Shown here piece by piece: positions 5,227 through 32,219 of a DNA stretch of 33,090 nt; position 1 is the stretch's first letter, and each line of letters opens with the position of its first letter. The notes below the pieces were generated by a model. It ran no database searches, had not been told where the DNA came from, and was given only the letters and a program-made list of their open reading frames with translations. Location of the stretch: contig JYFJ02004338.1 in the NCBI GenBank assembly GCA_000934665.2, positions 1 to 33,090 of the forward strand, in the 5' to 3' direction. The stretch is from Catajapyx aquilonaris. Its lineage: Eukaryota. A program made the position numbers and the translations under genes.

Positions 5227-5232
5227 TTTATT
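5227..5232 (-). promoter_or_regulatory. Polyadenylation signal AATAAA of paralog A
   Basis: Plus-strand tttatt about 20 nt downstream of the TGA at 5254-5256. Confidence 0.65.
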
Positions 5233-5253: not shown

Positions 5254-7913
5254 TCACATAAGGCTGCACCTGTTGGCCTCTTCTGCTGCCTGGCACAGAC
5301 ACACTGCTTCGTCCATGGTCTTTCCAGGGATGTGACCTTCGCACAAGTCGCGAGAGTACATCAGGTCGTCGTGTGCCTCTTCACCTTCGTCGTAGTCCTG
5401 TATCTCGGCCGGGTACTCGCCCAACTCCAAGCTCTGAAATGTGGAAAAAAACGGACATTGGTCAGATGCACATTAATGTCCAGCACTGTTATACCCTCAC
5501 CTGGCAGATGCACTTGAGGCTTCTGGTGAAGGCCTGGTTCCTCTCCGGGGTGTCCTTGGCCGCCTTCTCGTTCTCCATGTGCACCAGGGCCTCCTTGAGC
5601 AGGCTGTACTGCTGGCGGTAGCGTCGAAGGCTTGGCTCTGGCATGACGTTCCCCTGCTTCTCCAGCCACTGGGGGTACCTCTCCGAGGCTGACAGCATCT
5701 GTGGGTAGATGACCCTGGAGATGAGGAGACGGACCAGGTCCTGCAGCCACAGCTCGAAGGCGGTCATGTCCCCTTCGTCCACATGTTCCTGGCTGAGTCC
5801 GATGTTGGCCAGCATCCTGCAGAGGACATCCTCTGAGGGCTCCTCCCTGTCCTTGTGCGCCCTGCGCTCCAGGAACTCGATCCCTTCAGCCAGGAGGACA
5901 GCCAGGGTCTTGGACCCCTCGACCCACTGGTGCGCGGCCCTCTTGGCCCCCTCCTTGAAGTAGACCCAGTTCTCGTTCAGCTCCTTCCGCAGCTTGTGCT
6001 GGGACCTCAGGTGCTCCCTGAACACTGCCTTCTCGTCGTATGGGTCCAGATCCAGCCCCACTGCGCCTCCAGGAGCCTCTTCCTCCAGGTCGTCCACTTC
6101 AGGCTGGCCAGTCATGGCCTGCAGCTCCTCGTCCCAGTTGTCCTTGTCCTCAGCTCCCTGTGGGATGTCCACTTTTCCGGTCAGACCTCGCAGGCTGTAC
6201 TCCACCTCCTGCAGCAGCGAGTCGGTCAGCATCCGGAGTCCCAGGCTCCCGTCCTGGAACCTGGCCGCCATCACCTCGTCTGACTCGTCCAGGGCATTGT
6301 AAGAGTGGTCACTGGCAGCAGCCACGACGGCCCCTTCGCCTCCGCCCTTCTCCTCTCGATGCTCTCCTGCAGGGGGCGCCACCGCCTCGTGGCAGACCCC
6401 TTCCTCGCTGCCCAAGTCCTCTAGGGGAGACTCGACACCCTCGCTGTCCACTTCCTCGCTGGGCGCAGGAGAGTCGCGTCCGAAGAAGGCCTTCTGGTCC
6501 GCCGTGTCTTCATACGGAGAAAAAGATGCGCGGTTCCAAAGTGTTTTTGGGTAAAGAAACTTTATGAGACTTACGCAATCCGATCAGGTTCCACAGAGCC
6601 TGCTCGAACTGGTAGACAGTCTGTATGATCAGCTCTTCTGCCAGGTTACCGGCTGAGACCTCCAAGTCCTCCAGGTTGCCTGAGGAAACGTGTCAAAAAG
6701 TACACGACGCAACATTAGTTATGGACATTGATAACCATCAGCACCCTAGCAAGGTGGATATTAATGGTGGCAAAAGGCTCCCGTCACCATTTACGTCTAA
6801 AGATCGGTCACGCTAAGAACGCAACCGAGTGCGCACACTAGTTCGCGCAAAACCTACAACGTTGCCACATTCATCGTGTGCTCGCCTCAGCTGTCCTTCG
6901 AGTGGCTCTGGCAACGCCGCAGAGGGGACCCACCAGTGTCAGAAATAAGCGTAACGTTCAACAGCTCATATCGCACGAAGCACTTCTCATTCCAGGAGTG
7001 CATCCTGTGCGCACACGGGATGCGCACTCTGTTGCGTTCTTATATTGACCGAATTATAACACTGTACTGTACATATATGGATGTAATGCGCACAAATTAG
7101 ATTTGTCCAAAATTATTTTATAAATGTTCGGCATTTGCTTTAGAAACGCGTTTCATCTGAAGCGCGTTTAGTCATTTCGTGGTGACCTTGTCCCATGGCA
7201 AGCATTTCCCCTTTTCAAGATGTTTCTTGGCTGGAATGGAAAAAGCTTCATCCTGTCCATTCAGGGCTACCCTCATGCCTCTCCTGCTTTGCGGATGCGT
7301 CTGACATACAGGATAAACTTTTCAAGGCGCCTCGCGTCAGCACCGCGAATTTTTATTTTTTATTTTTTAAATTGCCTGAATGTAGCAAAAATTGGGAAGA
7401 CATCCAGGTTGCTGCAAGTTGCTTTTTTTAATGCATTGTTGCCCATTTGTATTTTTTCCGGGCTTGAAACAGAAAACAACAATTGCAAAGTGTTGCCGTA
7501 AGTAGTAAACAACATGTTTAGCATGTTCGTATGCAATGTCCACTAACAATATGAGGTTCGGTTGCCAACCCTGCCGACCATTGTTGCTGATTATTGTCCC
7601 GATCGATTAGCATATTTTTGGGGGGGGCTTCCTTCAATCGATATGGACTCCACATGGCATACTTTTTTTTTGAACACATTACATGAAAAATTTGCATTAA
7701 AAGCACACGAATCAGGTGTTGCTAATTCGGATCTTATTTTTTTTGGCGAGTGCGAATCTGACCTGTTTCATGGGACAAATGGATGGCTTTGAGGCAATCT
7801 GAGAGTCGATCCTCGTCCAGAAAGATCCCCTTGATCTGCCTTGTCTCGCTGGTGTTTGTTCCGACCTGGACCGAATCCGCTTTAGTCTCCTGAACCTCTG
7901 CCGCCGACGCCAT
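5254..7913 (-). CDS. PEX19: Divergent, elongated PEX19-family peroxin, paralog A (480 aa, C-terminal CaaX CSLM)
   Basis: Hand-spliced exons 7763-7913, 6575-6679, 5501-6507 and 5254-5433. All introns are GT-AG with consistent phase; total 1443 nt. The C-terminal region SEDVLCRMLANIGL...LISRVIYPQMLSASERYPQWLEKQGNVMPEPSLRRYRQQYSLL...KCICQ|SLELGEYPAEI parallels Pex19 (SEEELTKAMEGLG...LLSKDVLYPSLKEITEKYPEWL...KYQEQ...MQQLQDLGHPPKEL). The protein ends ANRCSLM*. The first two exons are less certain than the last two. Confidence 0.88.
6804..7052. mobile_element. MITE family 1 variant in intron 1 of paralog A
   Basis: About 32-bp inverted termini: tcggtcacgctaagaacgcaaccgagtgcgca and tgcgcactctgttgcgttcttatattgaccga. 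Confidence 0.8.
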
Positions 7914-8455
7914 TCTCTTTAAAATGTCCAAAAAACCTACCACAACCTCACTTCCTATTACAACACAAAAAAATTAATAATCTTGTTGCGATTAGAAATT
8001 CAAACCTAAGCATCATACGAACAACAAAAGGGGGGTGCTGAGCTTACTTGAACCGATCACTGTTTAGTAATCTAAGAGCCCAAAGTGAGGCAGAGGAGCG
8101 ATAGAGATGGTTCGAATGGTGCTTCTCTCAAGAACATTCGGGGCTAGAGTGTTGACTCTTCCAAACCTGATTGCTTGGTCCTTGTCGAGTTACTTAGCGA
8201 CTTGGGTGGAAGTCAACAGTGTTTGGTTGCTATAGGATCAAGGATAGGTAGTTTTTTTTTCTCTTCGGGTAATGTTTGGAAGGGCTGTCGAATTGTGTGC
8301 AAATCAATGCCAAAATCACAGATTTTCACGAAACTGATTTTATACTTAATTGAATCCTGGTAAATGTTGGCAGTTATTAACAATTATTTTCGTCAGATAT
8401 GTGGACAGTAAATGAAAGCAGTAAATTGGTCTGATTTATTTGGTAGGCCTATACC

Positions 8456-8900
8456 GAGACATAACAAATAATTTCAAAAAATTTAAATTAATGCAAAATT
8501 TCTAAGTTGAATTTGAAGGCTTTTTATTAGACATAACAAGTAGTCTAATTTCAAAGAGTTTAATTAATGCAAATAATTACTAATTATTGAATTTTTGAGT
8601 TTTTTTTTGCAGTGTATTGGTATGTGAGGCATAACGAGTAATTTAAAAATTTAAGTTAATGCAAAATTTCTAAGTCGCATTTGAAGGCTTTTTATGAGAC
8701 ATAACAAGTAGTCTAATTTCAACGAGTTGAATTAATGCAAATAATCACTAATTGAATTTTTAAGTTTTTTTTGCAATATATTGGCATGTGAGGCATAACG
8801 AGTAATATCAAAAAATTCAAACAAGTGCAAAAACTTACTGAAGGCTTTTTGCAATTACTTGGTATGTGAGTCGTAACAAGTAATTTCAAAAATGTAAAAA
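8456..8900. repeat. Higher-order AT-rich tandem repeat (~70 + ~96 bp dimer)
   Basis: Unit starts (gagRcataacRagta-like) at 8456, 8528, 8626, 8696, 8790 and 8868. Alternate units are the most similar to each other. Confidence 0.85.
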
Positions 8901-9487
8901 AAACGCAAAACAAATTGAGTTTGAATTTTGAATGTTCTTTACAAATTTGCCATAGTACCATTTTGCCATTTTTTTGCCAACCTTTCTTTATGCCGGTGGC
9001 ACACTTTTTATTCATTACGCTGAGTTGCGGAATGTTCGTCTCTAATTAGATCTTTCATTTTTATTACAGTCCGCTACATTTTTGCACAATCAAATCACGC
9101 TGGAATATAATTTTTTGTTTGCCAATTTTTTTTTACTCGCGCTGATGGTACGGCATGTTTGACTTGTTATATCAACTCATCAAAAAAAGTCGTTTGCAAC
9201 ATTAATGTGGGTGGAAAAAAAAAAGTTGGACTGAACACAACTCATGCGAAAGGTTGTCACTGATTGTTGACGCGCATCTGAAGCAAAAGTTGGCCGCAAA
9301 ATTTTCTCCTCACAATCTGACGTCATCACTTTTAAAAAAATCGTTGTGAACCAAAATAATATTTTCTGCCAAATGTTTGGTCGAAATTACCAAATGATTG
9401 GTTCGACACAAATATATTTTGGTTGATTCACAACATTTGAATGATTTTTTTAAAGCACCACATTAAAATCACACCAGTAGCCTCTAT

Positions 9488-9618
9488 AAGGTTCATTCCA
9501 AAGCATTGGCAACGTCGCAAAAGTCGGCCATATTGTCACCCCCTTAAACATAGCGTTGGAAACAATTTGCGCGAACTGTGATGCGCACTCGGTTGAGCTC
9601 ATTAACAAATTCATATAT
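9488..9618. mobile_element. MITE family 1 type B, partial copy
   Basis: gcaaaagtcggccatatt...gttggaaacaatttgcgcgaactgtgatgcgcactcggtt matches 2588-2665. Confidence 0.75.
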
Positions 9619-9730
9619 AAATATGTTTGCTTTGTTAGAGCGAGCAATGATATTTTCAAATAATTGTTCTCAGCCAATTAGTTTGAACAGTGTCTAGGTT
9701 TTTTCATCCAGATATTTTCAAGACTGCCGG

Positions 9731-9731
9731 T

Positions 9732-9774
<43 letters not shown>
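9731..9774 (+). repeat. (TTTA)11 microsatellite
   Basis: Perfect 44-bp run. Confidence 0.97.
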
Positions 9775-9805
9775 CTAGCTGCGGCACCCGGCGTAGCCCT
9801 GGATA
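9775..9805 (-). mobile_element. Helitron-like 3' terminus
   Basis: The minus strand reads ccagggctacgccgggtgccgcagCTAG|t: an imperfect GC-rich hairpin about 10 nt before a terminal CTAG followed by T. The 5' end was not identified. Confidence 0.55.
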
Positions 9806-10568
9806 CACAGTCCGGTACATGCCTATGTACAACAAAATTCAATTCTTTTGTGGGTGTAAAAATAAAGTAGGTATGTATAAATTTCCGGACTATAAATGCA
9901 AGGTAGCTAATAAACATTTCCTTTGATTTTCCGCCTAGAAATCTCATACTGCAAAATCCCATTCCTATGGCCCCATTAAAGCACTTTGATTTCTCTAATC
10001 ACACCCTAGCTTTAAAGCGCAGCACCCCCTACACGAAAACTAAAGTGCAGTTAGCGCCGGGCTCCTGGTGCACACTGAAAGCATGGCCCTGTCTGAATTA
10101 GCACCGGTTCTGGGGCCTAGAGCTGAGTGCAATTAAAACGGATGTTGGTTCCGAGAGAGAAACGGGTTGAGGTTTTTGGGTGGGGTGGGGAAAGGGGGGG
10201 GAGGTGGTGGCCATTTTAGGCTTCATTTAATCAGGGCCAGAAGTGGCAGCAGGGGCCAGAGAAAATCAGTCGGAGACTCCAGAGGGAAAAGACATGCTTC
10301 AACTCTACTCTGTAATCAACGGTCATTATCATTTTGCAAAGGAGGGGAAAGGACCATGGAGACGACCTGTAATTTGCACGCCCGAGAGTCTCCCCCAGGC
10401 CATTTACTGCCAGTGTTTAGTCTTAGCGTTTCTCCAGGCTTGTTGCAAAAGTTGACCGTCGTATATGCACAGTTTATCCGACCATTTTACTGTACGGTTA
10501 AGTACTAAAGTGAGGTGTTGACATGTACCGACCCGAGAAAACATTATAGCTAGAAACATGACTAACAA

Positions 10569-10770
10569 CTAGATTTTATTTTTTAAATGAGCCTAACCGA
10601 GTGCGCAACATAGTTCGCGCAAATTGTTTCCAACATTGAGCTTGAGAGGGTAACAATATGGCCTACATTTGCGGTGTTGCCAATGAGACTCCGGAGAAGT
10701 AACTGTGGCAACAACGTAGTTGTCGGAACAATGGACTCGGTTGCGCTCGTTTAAAAAAATCAATCTATAG
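10569..10770. mobile_element. MITE family 1 type B, reverse orientation
   Basis: Inverted termini tttttaaatgagcctaaccgagt and actcggttgcgctcgtttaaaaaaatcaatctatag. The interior is the reverse complement of the 2450-2699 copy. Confidence 0.8.
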
Positions 10771-11140
10771 TCTGGATCATTTCTAGACAACAAATATTTT
10801 TTGGAGGCGACACAACCTGATTCCAAATATTTCAAAAATATTTTACGATTATGTCCCATACACTACTGTCATGTATGTAAAGAGACATATTCATGTGCTC
10901 ATTTTTGTGTTTATACAACTGCACTTTCGTTCGCGACAGTTACCGCCACAAATTCTGCGGATGAATGTGACCAAAATTTAATAAGGAGTCATCCCATCCT
11001 CTTTTCAGACTTTCCGAAATAAGATTTTCTTAATAGTGCTCGCAACTCAAAGGGCGTGGAAATGAACCGAGGAGATTTCCGCTTAGTTAGACGTGTCTCT
11101 GTAGGGATTGACTTGGATTAAGAGCCGCAGTCCCCCCCCC

Positions 11141-11148
11141 NNNNNNNN
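11141..11148. other. Assembly gap (8 N) between a C run and an A run
   Basis: nnnnnnnn in the sequence. Confidence 0.99.
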
Positions 11149-11224
11149 AAAAAAAAATCTACTTCCTCCTAGAAATTAGCACCGAGTAACCAGCTATTTA
11201 ATCATCTTAGTTAATCCGTCTTAT

Positions 11225-11230
11225 TTTATT
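11225..11230 (-). promoter_or_regulatory. Polyadenylation signal AATAAA of paralog B
   Basis: Plus-strand tttatt about 50 nt downstream of the TAG at 11280-11282. Confidence 0.6.
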
Positions 11231-11279
11231 GCTCAAACGAACTCTTTTCGAGGGGTGGGTTAAAAGGTTCGAACAGATC

Positions 11280-14200
11280 CTATGGCTTATAATTGCGGTT
11301 GGGGATTCGACCCATGCTCTTGCTGCGAGATAGACCAGTCTTCTTCATCAGGTTGATCTTACCCTTTGATGGACGCACATCTGGAGGAGGAAAAATATGT
11401 GGTGATTTTTTTTCTTCAAATTTGTTCACACATCCAGTGCTGTACTGTGTACTTGCCCAGTACAGTATAGTGCATTACCTGGCTTGATAGCAGGGGTGTC
11501 CGACTTGGATCGCTGTGGACCACGCTCCTCAAGAGTCTGGTACTTGGTCAGTTCCATGGCCATAAAATCTGAAATTAGTCAAAAAAAATGTAGCACACAA
11601 CCAGTCATGTTGCAAAACAGTCGCTATTTACCGTCAATAGGAGGCCTGACTGGACATCCCTTCTCGAGTTCCTCGGGCAGCTTTCCCAGGAGCTCAACCT
11701 TGATCATGTTCCTGAAGACACGAGCGTACCGAGCGTCCTTTTTGTCCTCCGTGTCCTCGTCCTTCTGCTGCGTTATCTCGTCCCATGCCGAGCACACAAG
11801 GTCCATCTGCTTCAGGCGCAAGGTACGCTCTTCTGGGGTTCCTGTATCGTTCGTGTCGTACGTCCTCAGCCATCCGGGAAACTGGAATTGCCAAAAAAGG
11901 AAAATGTTTCGGACACATGTTCTGATGCGACTGTGTGGCCCTTGGCACCGCACCTTCTGGGCGATGAACTGTATCTGGTAGTACATGGACACCATCGCGG
12001 TCCACTTCCACATCTGCCTGAAGCGACTCCACATCTCCTCCAGGCTCTTTCCTCGCAGGGCATCGTCGGACAGGCCGTACGCCATGCAGACCATTTGCAG
12101 CTCTTTCATAGAGTAGTAGTCCTGGAGAAGAAAAAAATATATATTATATTAGAATCACCTTTTAAATCTCGAGGTCCTTTCCCATCTCGACCTGACCTTT
12201 TGCAGCTCGTGTTCCGGCATGAGTAGGAAGGTCTTCCACGACAGCAGGGCAGCCGAGCCGTTCTTGTTTCCCCTAGCACCCCGGGCCATCCTGGAGATAG
12301 AGGACCAAACCTCGTCCTGGTCGCAAATCGACTCCTTCTTGACTGTGTGGAAGCACGAGTCAGTATACCACACACACACGCATTTAAAAATAAAATAAAA
12401 TAAAAGATGATTAGATTTACTCTTTTTGATGTACATGGTGAGGCTGTCCTGAAAAGCTCCTTTGAGCTGCAGGAGAAGGGCTTCTATCCTGACCCTGACG
12501 TCCTCCAGGTTGCTGGAATAATCTTTCTTGGGTGGTTTGCCAGGAACGGATGGCAAGGGTGGCTTCCTCCCGGCAGCGTTGGGTCCCTTCATGGCTGCCA
12601 AGCAAAGAGAGACTTTAATAACAAGGAAAAAGCCACCAGCAGAGCCAAACTCCGCAGCCAACTTGAAAATAGTTTCTCATAGCCGCTAAATGAATCCGGA
12701 ATCTTCAAAATCAAAGCCTGGAAGGGTTTTTTGTTGTTGTTGTTGTTGGAACACTGTACAGTGTGGTACAAAGTTTCAGGTGTGTGTTGGGAAGGTAATA
12801 AAGCTCGTCGGGAACATTGTCAAGGGCAGCTTGAATCGGCCCTTAAACGCAGCGAGTTTCCAGTAGCAACCAGCAGTTTGAAGTGCACAAGCTCATGTTC
12901 TCTGGTGTGGAAAAGTCATCGAACCTCACAAAGCCTAACATTTGGCCTAAAACAAAAAATCACTTCTAAAAGAGCAGCAACTAAAACGTAAAGAGCTTCT
13001 CATTTATAACCGCTACTTTAAGCCCTATTGGCGGAGAACAGTTATGCAAAGCGCTGCTTCTGGAGAACCGCTACCTTTATGAGTTATGCCCTGCGAGTTG
13101 CATGATCCTACAACAAATTTGTATTCAAAAAATTATTCACCTTTCCCCAGAGCGTTTCGGATCTTCACCTCGAATCGAGCCTGAGCCGTTTTGATGAACT
13201 TGTCCTCATGCTGGGGGGTACCTGCGGGTGGGGGAAAAAAAGAACGATGAAACTGTCGCAATATTTCAGTTTTCTTATTATAGAACCGCAAACCCGAAGC
13301 AGCGGGACGGAAAGGGAACGAAGTGAAAAGCTCGACGACAATGCAGATGAGCCCTGTCACTCATACGAGAGCTACAAGTGGGGGGAAAAAATGTATCCCC
13401 GCAGCACCTTCAAGAACCATTTGTTTTCCGCGAGTTGGGAGGATTTTAAATGCGGAAGTTTTTGGGTCGTCCATCTCATATATAATCTGGGTTTAAATGT
13501 ACTACGATCGAGCTAGTTGAACTGTAGAAACTGTAGAGAACACCGCAATCTTCAGTTTTTGAATGTATCTTAAGTCGGGACACCCTGTGAAACGTGCAAA
13601 ATTCTCCTTGTGTTGAGACATAAACTTTGTCCTGAACCACCGGCAGAACCCGCCCGCCCGCCTTTAAAACCGCGTCTATCTACCAGATCCGGGCTGTCTG
13701 GCACGACACGACATCTTATTAATCATAAACAGGCAAAGCAAGGCAAGGCAAGGAATTTTCATATGCCCCGACATGTTTGCTAGTAATTAATTTTACCTAG
13801 CGTCTTGAGCAGAGCCTGCTGCCTCAAAGCTCCTCCGACGTCTTTGACCGCCCTCTCGTAAGCTGTAAAGACACAAAACAATGTATTTTTTAAAAAATAT
13901 ATATTTCCAACATTTCTGCACATTATGTTTGATTGTTAAAGCATGGGGACAATTGGAGGGGCTTAGGCTCATCCATTACGAATAAAGCCAAAAACGGAGG
14001 GTATCTCCTGAGAGACTGGAGCCTGGGCTTTTGAATCGATCCCCCCAACCCAACCCCCACAAGCACAGGGGGTTTTCCAAGGGCAGTTATTCTGCATCCC
14101 TCCCCACCAACTATGGAGTCACACACACAGAGCCCAGGATGGAGAATTCCAGTCGGTCTCAACAGATGGAGTCGAAGCCATGTGTCTCTCGCGACTAGAA

Positions 14201-14830
14201 ATCGAGCCGGAATCGAACCCAAAAAATATATTTATTTTCCAATAGTCACAAATTAGGATTTTCTCAAAACTTCTAATACACCTAATCCACTTATCCACAA
14301 ATTTGTCGGGTCATAAACAAGTTGACCCTTTTTTTAAAAAAAAAACAAATTTGATAGTACCTCTCTGTGCAATTAGCCTGTAGTTGTACTCGTGCATTGC
14401 GATGCTGATTTGCACCGCGTACTCGGCGAAGGAAGGCACGAAGAAGTGTTCCTCCCACAGTCGTTCGGTATCGTTGCCTTTCAGAAGCTTCTGAACGTCC
14501 TTAGACAGGTCTTGATCTGGAACAGGGGAAAGAGCTATGTAAGGGTCAATAGGTCACGCGTCCCAGGTGAAAAATATATACCGTAGGTCATGAGCTCCCT
14601 GGTGGCCCTCTCGTAGTTGGACATGAGTTGCTTGACCAGTTCCACGACCCAAAGTGACACAATTCGTTCCACCTCTTCGTTCGGGGCGTCTAAGTAACAT
14701 TGACAACATTAAGTACAAGGTGATGCAATGAGGAATAATTGATGGACCTACTTATTTTCTTGGTGTCGCAAAGCATGTTGTACACAATTTGCAGTCTGTC
14801 TTCCTTCTGTGCTCCCATTGCATAAGCCAT
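11280..14830 (-). CDS. PEX19: Divergent, elongated PEX19-family protein, paralog B (472 aa, no CaaX)
   Basis: Hand-spliced exons 14752-14830, 14582-14689, 14361-14516, 13797-13862, 13141-13221, 12421-12594, 12197-12342, 11954-12121, 11632-11881, 11479-11568 and 11280-11380. All introns are GT-AG and the frame stays open; total 1419 nt. The segment MYYQIQFIAQK|FPGWLRTYD...LRLKQMDLVCSAWDEI...DEDTEDKKDARYARVFRNMIKVELLGKLPEEL matches the Pex19 C-terminal domain pattern. The protein ends GRIPNRNYKP*. Confidence 0.8.
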
Positions 14831-15090: not shown

Positions 15091-18000
15091 CTGGAAAACG
15101 GAGCAAATGTTGTCCTTCCTTTATCTCGTCCGGAACAAAAAAAACAGACAGAGCAACAAACATCGCCCCTGGAAACCGATCAAAGTTGCCATCAGTTTGA
15201 GACGGTTTTAGCAGGAACCGTATGTACTGTACTGTATATAAACAATGCCATGGTTACGGGGAAAATATTACGGTTGCCGTATACCCTGACTGTTAATTGT
15301 TACTGGTAATGTCAACAATCCAGGTTGAGCCGGTGCAAATACGGCTTGAATCAAATCGATTGGAAATATCCATAACAAAAGCAGATCGGCCGCAATCAGG
15401 CCACATTATGGGTCGATTACACCGGTAATAATTTCGGAGTTAACCTCAATCATCAGCTAAACACGAAATTACATCAACCTGATGGCGCAACAGGCACCTA
15501 AAATAGGAATTTGCCCTAAACTGTCATGGCGGCGAAGCTTAACATCTCCATCAAGAGTAGTGCGGAAATTTGAAATACATAAATCACAAAAGTAAAGAGA
15601 AATACATAAATCACACAAGTAACATACAATAAAAATTAAAACTCGATGAACTAATTTTACTAAAGTATAATACACATTCTGCCGGCATAAATTCCACGCA
15701 TGCGTCGACTTCGCGCTAATCCAGGCGTGATGGCCACCTCAGATGAGACAATAAAATGTATAAGATATTATAATAAATATATTAAAATCTATTTAAAATA
15801 ATAAAACAAAGTATGTAAGACAAATAGAAATACAATCTATTACAATATATCGAAAATAATAAAACAACCTCTAAAATTAAAATCAAATATACGAAAATAA
15901 AACAATGTATATTTAATAATAGGCATATGTACTGTACACTATTACAAGAAATAGGATAATACATACAGTACAAATAATACATCATAGTACTCATGGCTCT
16001 ATATTGTTCATGTACAGTACTCTGCCCTAAAGTGTAATGGAAATTATTATTTTTCCCTCCAATAATGGCCACCACGCTTGCGTTCTTATATTTACAGTCT
16101 ATTTTATAGCTGTACATAACATAATTTTTTAAATGTTGTTTGTTGACACTTGTGCACTCTTTTGTTAGGCTACTTGAACTTAATTTTGTGCTTGCTTCCC
16201 TGTTAATAGAGTATACGAATTCTGAGAGGGGGGTATACCCAAAATGTCTCGAGAAGGAACGATCTAAATTGCCTGCATTTCCTGAGGAAATTCCATTCGA
16301 ATTGAGGGAGAGAGAAAGTTTTTTTTTTCTTCTTCTTCTTCTTCTTCTTATCCTTTCTATACTTTGGAGGAAGGGGAGGGGGAGGAAAGGGAAAATGAGA
16401 AAGAATGATTCGCAGATAGTGGATGTGACATTCCGACAGCAAAAGAGGTGACAGATGTGCAGAGGAAGGCGTTGAATAATTTAGAACGAACTACTTGCTT
16501 CGACCCTATATACATATAGCTTTCAACTTTGACCTTATCCTGAAAATTCGGGAGGGCCAAGAGATTTGATTTTTTAAAAAAGAGGTCAACATATGCGTGT
16601 TTTTGTGTTGATTAAAACCTACTCATTCGATTCAAGTATTTAATGCGTTTTGCAGTGAAAGCGTTAAATCTCGTCAAGGGTTCTCATTATTTCCTTGTTA
16701 ATTACTCCTTGCGCGTTAATTTTGATGTAAATTCAAATTTGATATTTCCTACCCCCCCTCGAAACTGTCACAAAGTGCCGGCAGATTAAGGACGCCTCCC
16801 CCAGCCTATTTTACCCCTCCCACATCCTCTTCCTTCCACATAATGCTCACAGAAATTTGCTTTTCCGAATCCATAACCCGTACCGAGTAAAAGCAATTCC
16901 CAAGACCTATGGAAACTTCCCCATAGCAATTACCTCACCCGCAACACGTACTCTCTAAAATAGTACGGAGAAAAATTTATTAATTATTCGAATTAAGAAG
17001 TTAGCAACACTTATGGAAATTTTAAGGGAAGCGAACCTGTCATTTGAATACAACTCAAATTGGCTTGAGTTTGTGCCTCTGTTTGTCTTGGGTTAGTATG
17101 CGCCATCTATGTGTGGAATGTAGCAGATCTGTCTGAATTATTTTTTGTAATTTAAAATATTTTTGAGCAAATAAAGAACTAACATAGTTACTAAAATATA
17201 ACAACTATATACAGTATGTCCTGTGTATAGGATGCTGGGTTTATCTGGTGCAATTTAAAGAGATGAACTTTATAATCATAATATATTCGACTTGAGTCAG
17301 TTATTAATTATTGCTGGTTGGCATGAAGTTACTCATAATATTCTGGAGCGTATATTTAACCTTCCTTTCATTTATAACCATCTAATTACAAACACACAGC
17401 TTTATTTCACCCCCCTCAAAAAAATTTCACCAGCTTCCAAAAATACTTCCACACCTTGCCTCTTTAAAAAATCAATCATCGGAAGTCATTGATCATGCCA
17501 GTTGATTATGTAATTAGGGGATTATTAGACCGCAGACTTGCCCCCCCCCCCTTTTTTTGGGGGGGGGGGATGTAGGTTGGCTTCATAAATATGGAAACTG
17601 ATTGTTTGACCCAATTTTGAGGGTGGAAAGGAGTAGTTCCCTCATTGCCATTAAAAATTTACATTGCGATACAGTGCAGCGAGCCTCCAGACCCTTCCTT
17701 GTTATAATGCATTGTTGGCAAACTTTGGAGCCGAACATTTGGGGAGTTTTGAGTCAACAGATGGCTTTTACGAGACTGCAGGTGCTCCCATGGAAAATGG
17801 AACCTACATTGCGAATAATATATTTCGCGAAGGAAAAAAAAAACCCTGAAAAAATATATGGCGCCAGGTAGTTTTTTGATCTTTATGTGTGCATTTCACT
17901 GCTGAAAATGGAAGCTAATGGGAGTCATTTTTAGTCGGAGGTATAGCTGGGAAAATGGCTTCCTTTCTATATAGGGTATGGGTTGTGTGTTTTACTGCAA

Positions 18001-21113: not shown

Positions 21114-21463
21114 CATGTGAAACCTCGATTCATCGTTTTTGTCGGGGAGCTTTTAAAAATATGGCTGCATGAAAATGACAAATTGAGAAACGCCATAATG
21201 CATAAACCGCGATTTTTTAAAATAAAAAAACGATGAATGCGGGAAAACTATAATTCGAGAAACGCTAAATGCGTAAACCCTGCATGTGCCGTTTCTGTAT
21301 TATTTTTTAAACGATGAATGCGGGAAAACTATAAATCGAGAAACGATATATGCCGTAAACCCTGCATGTATCGTTTCTCAATTTACATTTTTTTAACGAG
21401 ATCGCAGGACTTAAAATATTGAACGAGGAATCCGGGAACGATAAATCGAGGTTTTACTCTGTA
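21114..21463. mobile_element. pogo/Tigger-like MITE with an internal 81-bp tandem duplication
   Basis: Inverted termini gtgaaacctcgattcatcgtt and aacgataaatcgaggttttac. The repeat aaacgatgaatgcgggaaaactataa...gtaaaccctgcatgt occurs at ~21228 and ~21309. Confidence 0.6.
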
Positions 21464-22075
21464 ATAACAGCAGGAATTTTTTCTTATCGTCTTTAATAGT
21501 GTGTCTTTTATGACATTGGTTGCCATCTGGTTGTATAGTACGCATAAATTCACAACTTTTAAATCAAAGATTCCGTACATTACTGTTGTTACAGCTTTTG
21601 TGACGGAATCACATTTATTCAAGTGTAAATGAGTATAATAATCCCCCAAGAACAGCAATTGACCTATACACAGTACAGAGAAAACACTGCTCCTCCATAT
21701 AGTGTGTATAATGTCCTGCAGCAAAACGCCGTATGCAAATGGAAGCATCTGCCTGTGCATGATCAGGTTATGGAGTATCCCTAACTCTGCACGCTTTTCG
21801 CACACAGAGGCTAAGTGACGGACACTCCGAATTGCAAAATTAGATTTTGTCTGCTTTCCACCATCACTGCAGGGCATGTGTATCGCCCTCCATATAACTT
21901 GATATGCATTTCTGGCGAGTAACACGAAGTGCAAACTGGGCAACCTTTGACCCAATTTTGCATCTCAAAAGAAAGGCGGAAAGGCTACTGGTTTTAATCA
22001 GATAGAGTATTATGCTATAAAGGTGTTGCGAATATTAGATTATTAAAAGTGCGTCACTTTTAAAAAGTGACATTA

Positions 22076-30745: not shown

Positions 30746-32219
30746 ATAAGTATTAAATGGTGCACAAATAAATAAATAAATGCTAATTCGCGACAAAAAT
30801 TAATTTCGCCGTCTCTTATGGTATAATTATGCGATGCTATACGCGTAGTTTCCAACATTCCAACCAAGTATCGCTCAATATGGGTTAAATATTGTGAACA
30901 ATAATTCGTATGACCTTATTTTTCGTATTCCCGACCTCTTCTTCCCATAACATCTCNAAAAAAACCCCCAAAGAAAAACAAAAAAAAAATATGAGAGAAT
31001 AAGCGAAAAGTTTTCAAGACAACGTGAGATGAACTTTTCGAACGAATCTACCGGAAATATAGCGATGATATCAACAACAACAACATGAGAAAAATAATAA
31101 AAATAAAAAAAGGAAGGAAAAAGAGAAAAGAAAACGACGCTTGGTCTGGACGTAATTTATGGCACCCTGCTGCGAGCGAAATATATAACGCTGCGTGCTC
31201 CGGACTTTTACCCGGGGAAGAACCGGTTGTTATTGCATTCCCTTTGAGGATATACCATCGGAGAAGGAACCTTTCCCCCCCCGGATATATATACCTTGCC
31301 CTCAGTAAAAAAAAAATGCGATGTCCGATTTTTTTGATCTGACTTTGAGAGAAGGTCGAATTTCTAAAAATGTGTCAGGATGTATATCTTTGCAAATTAT
31401 TTGTGCGAACAAATTTTGCGATGGATATATGGGCAAAGTGTTAGAGATAAGTGGTGATCAACAAGGGGAATGGTGCCAAAATATGACCATGCGAATTCCG
31501 TGCGAAAATTGTGCACACGCAAACCTATATGCAGAACATTTTAGTGAAATACAGCGCTTTTTTAAACATGCACTGTTCATTTTTTTGGCTTAAATGAGCA
31601 ATAATTTGCTTTTAAAACTCCAAAAAATTTGGGGCATTTTCGTTGCGATTTTTTTTGATGCCTACGAAAGTAACGCATGCCACGATCTTTGATTTGTTTG
31701 TTTATTTGAGAGCAAAAACAATTTGCATATATGCCATTTTTTGAACGCCAGTTTTTTTAAGGGTGATTTTTGGGATTGTTTTGTTGGCCTGATAAATTTT
31801 TTTTGCAATTCAGGCCAGTATTATTGCATGTCTGTTTTGCACAACATTTTGTGTCGTTTTGTCGAGTTTTTGTGTGACCAATGTTTTTTTGTGCCATGAG
31901 AATATTTTTGCAACATTACATTGGTAGACAGAAGAATTTTTTGAGAGGCGGAGTGGGGAGATTTGCAGGAGATGGCAATGTGCACGGGAACTGTCCACCA
32001 CACTTTTTTGCGAATTTTTTGCCCAACTAATTCTGCACAAAAAAGGGTTGCCTTTTATTAGCCTTTTTCGCACATTACAAGTGGTCGTTGCATCGTGGGA
32101 AATATTTTATTGCTAAGAACCGGTTGCACCATGACAAAATATAATTATGATGAAATTAGTCTTGGGAATATCTTCCCCCAGAGTAAATTGTATTCGCCCC
32201 CATGCTTTTTGTGGTAGAT

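Follow-up and report, generated by a model that had tools for sequence, protein, structure and literature searches.

Contig JYFJ02004338.1 of Catajapyx aquilonaris (assembly GCA_000934665.2; 33,090 nucleotides, analysed over its full length and referred to below as the window) carries two neighbouring PEX19-like genes, designated gene A and gene B. The locus is probably best read, with moderate confidence, as a tandem gene pair that descended from a single lineage-specific PEX19 with an extended N-terminus; gene A would be the working ortholog and gene B a fast-evolved, non-farnesylated copy. To our knowledge, PEX19 is normally a single, short and conserved gene in animals. Both genes are located on the minus strand, with an intergenic distance of 3,366 bases from the stop codon of gene B (11280) to the start codon of gene A (7913). 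According to splice models derived from the sequence, gene A consists of 4 exons that encode 480 amino acids and a C-terminal CaaX box, CSLM, and gene B consists of 11 exons, between positions 14830 and 11280, that encode 472 amino acids with the C-terminus NYKP. All 13 introns (3 in gene A and 10 in gene B) have GT-AG borders. A first-pass annotation of this DNA had described two same-strand genes about 3.4 kb apart with products of 470-480 residues, a description borne out by these models.

PEX19 homology and common origin of genes A and B

Gene A is a clear homologue of PEX19, as judged from profile and structure-database searches with its sequence. Its exon 3 matched the Pfam Pex19 model (PF04614) at 48.6 bits (E 1.1e-12), above the gathering cut-off of 22.2, and gene A scored 84.1 bits against a profile of 24 canonical PEX19s. 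The human PEX19 C-terminal domain entries 2wl8 and 5lnf of the PDB matched gene A with E-values of 1.8e-6 and 2.9e-6, respectively, and a profile of the A family (gene A and its long relatives) matched the PEX19 C-terminal domain in the PDB at E 5.7e-10. In hhalign comparisons, the A family aligned with canonical PEX19 with a probability of 99.5% (E 1.4e-22); residues 116-480 of gene A spanned canonical columns 6-316, including the docking-helix consensus. An exhaustive phmmer search with gene A over 1.84 billion representative proteins yielded 47 proteins at E <= 0.001. One of these, P0002 (E 4.2e-33), was a close relative, and the other 46, of 140-368 residues, matched the C-terminal domain only. 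Named clusters that were looked up among the matches were annotated PEX19 proteins of a chiton, a spider mite, a starfish and lancelets.

Long relatives of gene A were obtained by a word-indexed search (P0001, 541 residues; P0002, 450 residues) and by cluster look-up (P0052, 514 residues). All three originated from JGI/Logan contigs of 1.6-1.8 kb, a size that fits transcripts. P0001 and P0052 ended, like gene A, in a CaaX box (CSIM and CCVM, respectively), and also had in common with it an EDRL-type helix, a QFE-AL helix, an LGLR-DS-LQEVEY block, an acidic linker, the Pex19 domain and a VCLC motif; they differed from it in an N-terminus that was approximately 40-45 residues longer and came from other organisms. 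Their alignments crossed all three exon junctions of gene A, that between exons 3 and 4 included, and the splice model of gene A is therefore supported by homology. P0001 and gene A were 35% identical overall and up to 69% identical in blocks. Identical residues were concentrated in the block designated H1' (22/32), in the [FY]ExA helix, H2 (15/25), and in the C-terminal domain (51/107), as compared with 3/54 and 11/80 in the linkers. Such conserved helix blocks between poorly conserved linkers form a pattern that suggests a disordered region carrying putative binding helices. An AlphaFold model of P0001 agreed with this pattern: helices were predicted at the conserved blocks with low confidence, and the C-terminal domain (approximately residues 390-510) was the sole confident part, with block means of the predicted local distance difference test (pLDDT) of 72-96, and the best four Foldseek matches of the model were PEX19 structures (probability 1.00; template modelling (TM) score 0.59-0.78 on the target). 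Further relatives were found neither in a profile search of 8000 scored candidates, which gave P0001 and P0002 only, nor in metagenome contigs (441 pattern matches, 0 confirmed). With its sequence hallmarks kept, gene A looks like a working PEX19 with an extra N-terminal part, and it is probably the lineage's own PEX19 ortholog rather than an extra copy.

Homology of gene B to PEX19 is supported by a custom profile and by hhalign, not by curated Pfam membership. The custom, canonical profile was built from 24 of the 46 phmmer matches P0003-P0048, by keeping proteins of 270-370 residues with a Cys at position -4 and dropping 22 that were fragments or had no such Cys. Spliced gene B scored 39.4 bits against this profile, a score reached by none of 2000 shuffles of gene B (shuffle maximum 9.7). 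The main domain match (32.3 bits) linked residues 268-398 of gene B to profile positions 144-269 and included the motifs K[FY]PxWL and GxxPxEL. By hhalign, gene B aligned with canonical PEX19 over residues 141-420 (probability 94.8%, E 5.3e-8) and was colinear with the A family, residues 7-432 of gene B corresponding to residues 31-460 of gene A (E 1.4e-4). The earlier claim that both products carry a Pex19 C-terminal domain thus stood for gene A by Pfam, and for gene B, which scored below the Pfam cut-off, by the custom profile.

A fold model of gene B was made for a 163-residue unspliced piece, which included 24 intron-coded residues; the input alignment consisted of short fragments from the PEX19 C-terminal domain. 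Its mean pLDDT was 68, with block means of 79-90 over approximately residues 91-150. The best four Foldseek matches of this piece were to 5lnf and 2wl8 (probability 1.00; TM score 0.56-0.68 on the target; root-mean-square deviation 1.5-3.3 Å over 79-93 columns). The C-terminus of gene B has no CaaX box. Readthrough of the exon 9 donor led to a stop after two codons, again without a CaaX box, and a scan of the window found no remnant of a CaaX exon between genes B and A. Gene B has the appearance of a rapidly evolving paralog without the capacity for farnesylation.

The two genes have the positions of their first two introns in common, as had been noted in the first-pass annotation. Intron 1 is in phase 1 and lies 13 codons past EDRL in both genes (codon 51 in gene A, codon 27 in gene B); intron 2, also in phase 1, lies 11 codons from F75 in gene A and from Y52 in gene B. 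In a four-way MAFFT alignment, both introns occupied identical columns and phase. None of the remaining introns, 1 in gene A and 8 in gene B, was common to both. The little sequence identity that had been reported for the pair was evident from a best BLASTP E-value of 1.1 and from 83 identical residues among 396 positions aligned by MAFFT (approximately 21%).

A maximum-likelihood tree (LG+G4) was calculated from 28 rows and 302 columns, with P0002 and P0049 (near-copies) and 22 fragmentary hits excluded. Gene A clustered with P0001 and P0052 (support 99/98), and the A family and gene B were split from the 24 canonical rows (support 91/89). The simplest reading is that genes A and B arose from a single extended ancestor through a tandem duplication that is old, since introns and architecture are common to both and the genes lie in tandem. 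That the copies are old and have stayed intact, as had been proposed, agrees with their low identity and with a guanine-plus-cytosine content at third codon positions (GC3) of 0.79 in gene A and 0.70 in gene B, versus a GC content of 0.32-0.50 in the introns.

Several observations weigh against this interpretation. Gene A was placed outside all 24 canonical animal PEX19s in the tree, a position that an old paralog would likewise take. Support for the grouping of the A family with gene B was only 91/89, and gene B had a branch of 2.99 changes per column and an odd composition; because of these two properties, long-branch attraction is possible and the placement of gene B is unsure. Pfam Pex19 scores of gene B were below the cut-off of 22.2, both for the open reading frame with a retained intron (12.6 bits, E 0.11) and for exon 9 (13.5 bits, E 0.061). 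Foldseek E-values for the gene B piece (0.011-0.048) were above 0.001 and the model had been guided by a PEX19 alignment, so that the fold counts as support, not as proof. Homologues of gene B were not found in a word-indexed search of longer proteins (0 among 275 candidates), in the ESM Atlas (no usable match) or in metagenome contigs queried with exon 9 (196 pattern matches, 0 confirmed), and no gene B counterpart of P0001 or P0052 was found. In the P0001 model, pLDDT was mostly below 50 in the N-terminal half and the helices at the conserved blocks were of low confidence, leaving the module reading discussed below without structural support.

The position of the A family and gene B outside all 24 canonical sequences would also be explained if both were additional, repurposed paralogs beside a separate canonical PEX19 of approximately 300 residues, serving another organelle, tissue or client set. 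Consistent with this alternative, only one cluster close to gene A was present among the 1.84 billion representatives, all other matches being short and confined to the C-terminal domain, and the extra N-terminal module of genes A and B was absent from the 24 canonical sequences. However, gene A appears to retain every PEX19 sequence hallmark, including the CaaX box that is also kept in its two long relatives, and a six-frame scan of the 33-kb window with three PEX19 profiles found genes A and B alone and no third PEX19-like locus. Animals have, as far as we know, one PEX19 as a rule. This alternative is therefore regarded as rather unlikely. The first-pass annotation had likewise suggested a repurposed system. 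For gene A, which does not look repurposed, this suggestion was not supported, in view of its C-terminal domain, its CaaX box, a conserved helix that aligns to the canonical PEX3-docking helix and its CaaX-bearing long relatives; gene B alone, with its long branch and without a CaaX box, fits it.

Gene models and surroundings

The exons and polyadenylation signals of the two genes are as follows.

Gene A exon 1, 7763..7913, minus strand: start codon at 7913-7911; EDRL helix H1 at approximately 7764-7826
Gene A exon 2, 6575..6679, minus strand: 35 codons, phase 1 at both ends; conserved helix H2 with FEQA at approximately 6576-6647
Gene A exon 3, 5501..6507, minus strand: 335 codons; helix H1' at approximately 6170-6265, acidic linker and most of the Pex19 C-terminal domain at approximately 5501-5788
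Gene A exon 4, 5254..5433, minus strand: last 59 codons and stop; CaaX box CSLM at 5257-5268
AATAAA of gene A, 5227..5232, minus strand: 22 nt past the stop
Gene B exon 1, 14752..14830, minus strand: start codon at 14830-14828; EDRL helix
Gene B exon 2, 14582..14689, minus strand: 36 codons, phase 1 at both ends; YERA motif; matches canonical profile positions 72-114 (independent E-value 3.5e-4)
Gene B exon 3, 14361..14516, minus strand: from the splice model
Gene B exon 4, 13797..13862, minus strand: from the splice model
Gene B exon 5, 13141..13221, minus strand: stretch placed by hhalign on the canonical PEX3-docking helix
Gene B exon 6, 12421..12594, minus strand: ends in phase 1, 11 codons past F211; intron 2 has the corresponding position relative to Y52
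Gene B exon 7, 12197..12342, minus strand: from the splice model
Gene B exon 8, 11954..12121, minus strand: first half of the C-terminal domain
Gene B exon 9, 11632..11881, minus strand: second half of the Pex19-like C-terminal domain, starting with FPGWL
Gene B exon 10, 11479..11568, minus strand: from the splice model
Gene B exon 11, 11280..11380, minus strand: basic serine-rich tail including the stop, without a CaaX box
AATAAA of gene B, 11225..11230, minus strand: 50 nt past the stop

Intron lengths across both genes ranged from 62 to 1083 nt, and most acceptors were pyrimidine-rich. Two introns of gene B, at 12343-12420 (78 nt) and 11882-11953 (72 nt), have lengths that are multiples of three and are free of stop codons in frame, so that their retention would yield longer in-frame proteins. 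Each of the 15 homologues that covered the site (alignment A4) had a gap at the 24 residues encoded by the 72-nt intron, which supports removal of this intron.

These two introns bear on the possibility that gene B is a duplicate in decay or without expression, whose 11-exon frame is an artefact of choosing splice sites that keep the frame. As they are stop-free, an open frame does not by itself dictate every part of the model, and the long branch of gene B, its lost CaaX box, its sub-threshold Pfam score and the failure to find homologues in protein, ESM Atlas and metagenome contig searches would all be in line with decay. This explanation is nevertheless considered highly unlikely: GT-AG borders were found at 10 of the 10 introns of gene B, together with pyrimidine-rich acceptors, its GC3 (0.70) exceeds the GC content of the introns (0.32-0.50), and a polyadenylation signal follows its stop codon. 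Moreover, most of the spliced product is colinear both with gene A and with canonical PEX19, the spacing ahead of the FPGWL motif becomes canonical once the 72-nt intron is taken out, and the two 5' introns coincide exactly with those of gene A. A model in which genes A and B form a single gene was rejected, as a start codon, a stop codon and an AATAAA signal are present in each of them.

An assembly gap of 8 N is located at 11141-11148, 132 nt downstream of the gene B stop and between a T run and a G run, and the adjacency of genes A and B spans this gap. The spacer between the genes also contains a 116-nt inverted repeat (9504-9619 and 10570-10685; 81% complementary, arms 950 nt apart), which may be a pair of short interspersed element copies in opposite orientation, or else mark the two termini of a small transposon. 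Upstream of gene A, an AT-rich array of tandem direct repeats occupies 8477-8891, with a copy spacing of 164-168 nt; its repeat families comprise two 109-nt copies with 94% identity and three 75-nt copies with 61-79% identity to the reference copy. Outside genes A and B, 21 long open reading frames (90-232 residues; for example 15782-16480 and 21383-21964, both on the minus strand) were searched against Pfam, and 20 of them gave no match at E <= 0.01. The reading frame at 31810-32106 (minus strand) showed a weak immunoglobulin-like match (PF24462, E 0.0024), below the cut-off. A single N is present at window position 30957.

The additional N-terminal module

In both genes, the extra length falls within the N-terminal half, which is disordered and precedes the cargo-binding domain, and contains a second helix module that weakly resembles the PEX19 N-terminus. 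This upstream module consists of the EDRL helix and the [FY]ExA helix and is common to gene A, gene B, P0001 and P0052. A different conserved block of gene A, LGLRMLTDSLLQEVEY, was placed by hhalign on the canonical docking-helix consensus ELDxLLDSALxDF; the EDRL helix represents a second, weaker candidate for the PEX3-docking helix of gene A. The PEX19 peptides in PDB entries of PEX3 or PEX14 complexes were not matched by the A-family profile at E <= 10.

The approximately 150-170 extra residues could have arisen when the N-terminal docking module of PEX19 (a PEX3-type helix and an FExAM helix) was partially duplicated in tandem, resulting in two modules per protein. This origin is proposed tentatively, at slightly less than an even chance. 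A profile of the N-terminal extension scored 24.3 against the canonical N-terminal part, as compared with a maximum of 14.1 for shuffles (0/100 reached the observed score) and 17.0 for the reversed profile. The body segment that follows the extension scored 19.6 against the same canonical part (shuffle maximum 17.1, 0/100; reversed 14.9), and in a separate column-shuffle run for the N-terminal part alignment 0/200 reached the observed score. Which of the copies matched the canonical docking helix depended on the aligner. Gene structure points in the same direction: introns 2 and 6 of gene B are both in phase 1 and lie exactly 11 codons past the aromatic residue that profile alignments equate with the canonical F of FExAM. 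For any single codon and phase, the chance that an intron falls there is approximately 0.007.

However, direct profile comparison of the two modules was not significant (12.9, with 14.7 for the reversed profile and 4/100 shuffles equal or higher), and the hhalign probabilities were low (13% and 3%). Column shuffles erase helix periodicity and therefore provide a lenient null, and no intron equivalent to intron 1 follows the second helix. As an alternative to duplication, the extra length may have originated from an insertion into the disordered linker, in which a new amphipathic helix evolved.

Proposed roles and comparison with known PEX19 systems

From the homology, architecture, gene structure and conserved blocks described above, the following binding, prenylation, expression and cellular roles are predicted. 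The parts follow one another in the same order in both proteins: a first helix module (EDRL, [FY]ExA) is separated by a poorly conserved linker from a second module, which aligns colinearly with the N-terminal half of canonical PEX19, and the helical Pex19 cargo-binding domain comes last. Gene A would encode a cytosolic chaperone and import receptor for peroxisomal membrane proteins. Its C-terminal domain would bind clients and accommodate the farnesyl group, tucked into the same domain, its N-terminal amphipathic helix would dock on PEX3, and the added module may provide a second docking or regulatory site. Gene B would be a tandem duplicate of the same extended ancestor that subsequently evolved very fast, kept many introns that gene A lost and swapped its CaaX end for a basic serine-rich tail. 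It may be a PEX19-like chaperone that acts without farnesylation and whose clients or destinations have changed or become fewer.

In a more speculative version, considered unlikely, duplication of the docking module gave a receptor with two PEX3/PEX14-type binding helices and the job was then split between a farnesylated copy for peroxisomal membrane proteins and a CaaX-less, basic-tailed copy for another destination (lipid droplets, mitochondria or endoplasmic reticulum). If true, such a split-job pair would constitute a natural separation-of-function system for several PEX19 roles.

The N-terminal half of PEX19 is a string of short docking helices whose individual roles are hard to separate. 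The locus described here offers a naturally occurring PEX19 to which a conserved helix module has been added, together with a sister copy without farnesylation. If both genes are expressed, the contributions of the farnesyl group and of the docking helices could be compared, as could the extent to which extra-peroxisomal roles can be split between paralogs. Should gene A be the only PEX19, the finding would shrink to a fast-evolving extended ortholog and one odd duplicate.

Human PEX19 is described as a protein of 299 residues whose disordered N-terminal half binds PEX3 and PEX14, whereas peroxisomal membrane proteins are bound by the folded C-terminal domain, where the CaaX box is also located (PMC5353646). 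In the same account, the farnesyl group is buried in this domain and raises client binding, and the farnesylation site is conserved, with the exception of trypanosomes. Genes A and B resemble canonical animal PEX19 in the helical C-terminal Pex19 domain, as indicated by sequence for gene A, by fold for the model of P0001 and, tentatively, by fold for the model of the gene B piece, in a mostly disordered N-terminal half with conserved amphipathic helices, as reported for human PEX19 (PMC5353646), and, for gene A, in a CaaX box that ends in M. They differ from it in size (472-480 residues, versus 270-370 in the 24 canonical sequences), in a sequence identity of only 20-30%, in the extra N-terminal helix module, in the absence of a CaaX box from gene B and in the occurrence of two tandem copies instead of the usual one gene.

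Among open-access papers and preprints, screened by title and the start of the abstract, no animal PEX19 paralog pair was found, and the only duplication stated there was that of Arabidopsis. Peroxin content varies among copepods according to a preprint on the salmon louse (10.1101/2021.03.15.435234), which is relevant only if the lineage is close. Canonical PEX19 has been reported to act at lipid droplets, mitochondria and endoplasmic reticulum as well (bioRxiv 10.1101/2025.11.03.686288). Arabidopsis, with PEX19A and PEX19B, is likewise a eukaryote with two PEX19 genes (PMC4733102). These are described as redundant, farnesylated and essential (PMC4733102), whereas genes A and B are approximately 21% identical and gene B has no CaaX box. 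Trypanosomal PEX19 resembles gene B in being a PEX19 homologue without a farnesylation site (PMC5353646); it is, however, the single working PEX19 of a protist, whereas gene B is a tandem paralog located beside a CaaX-bearing copy.

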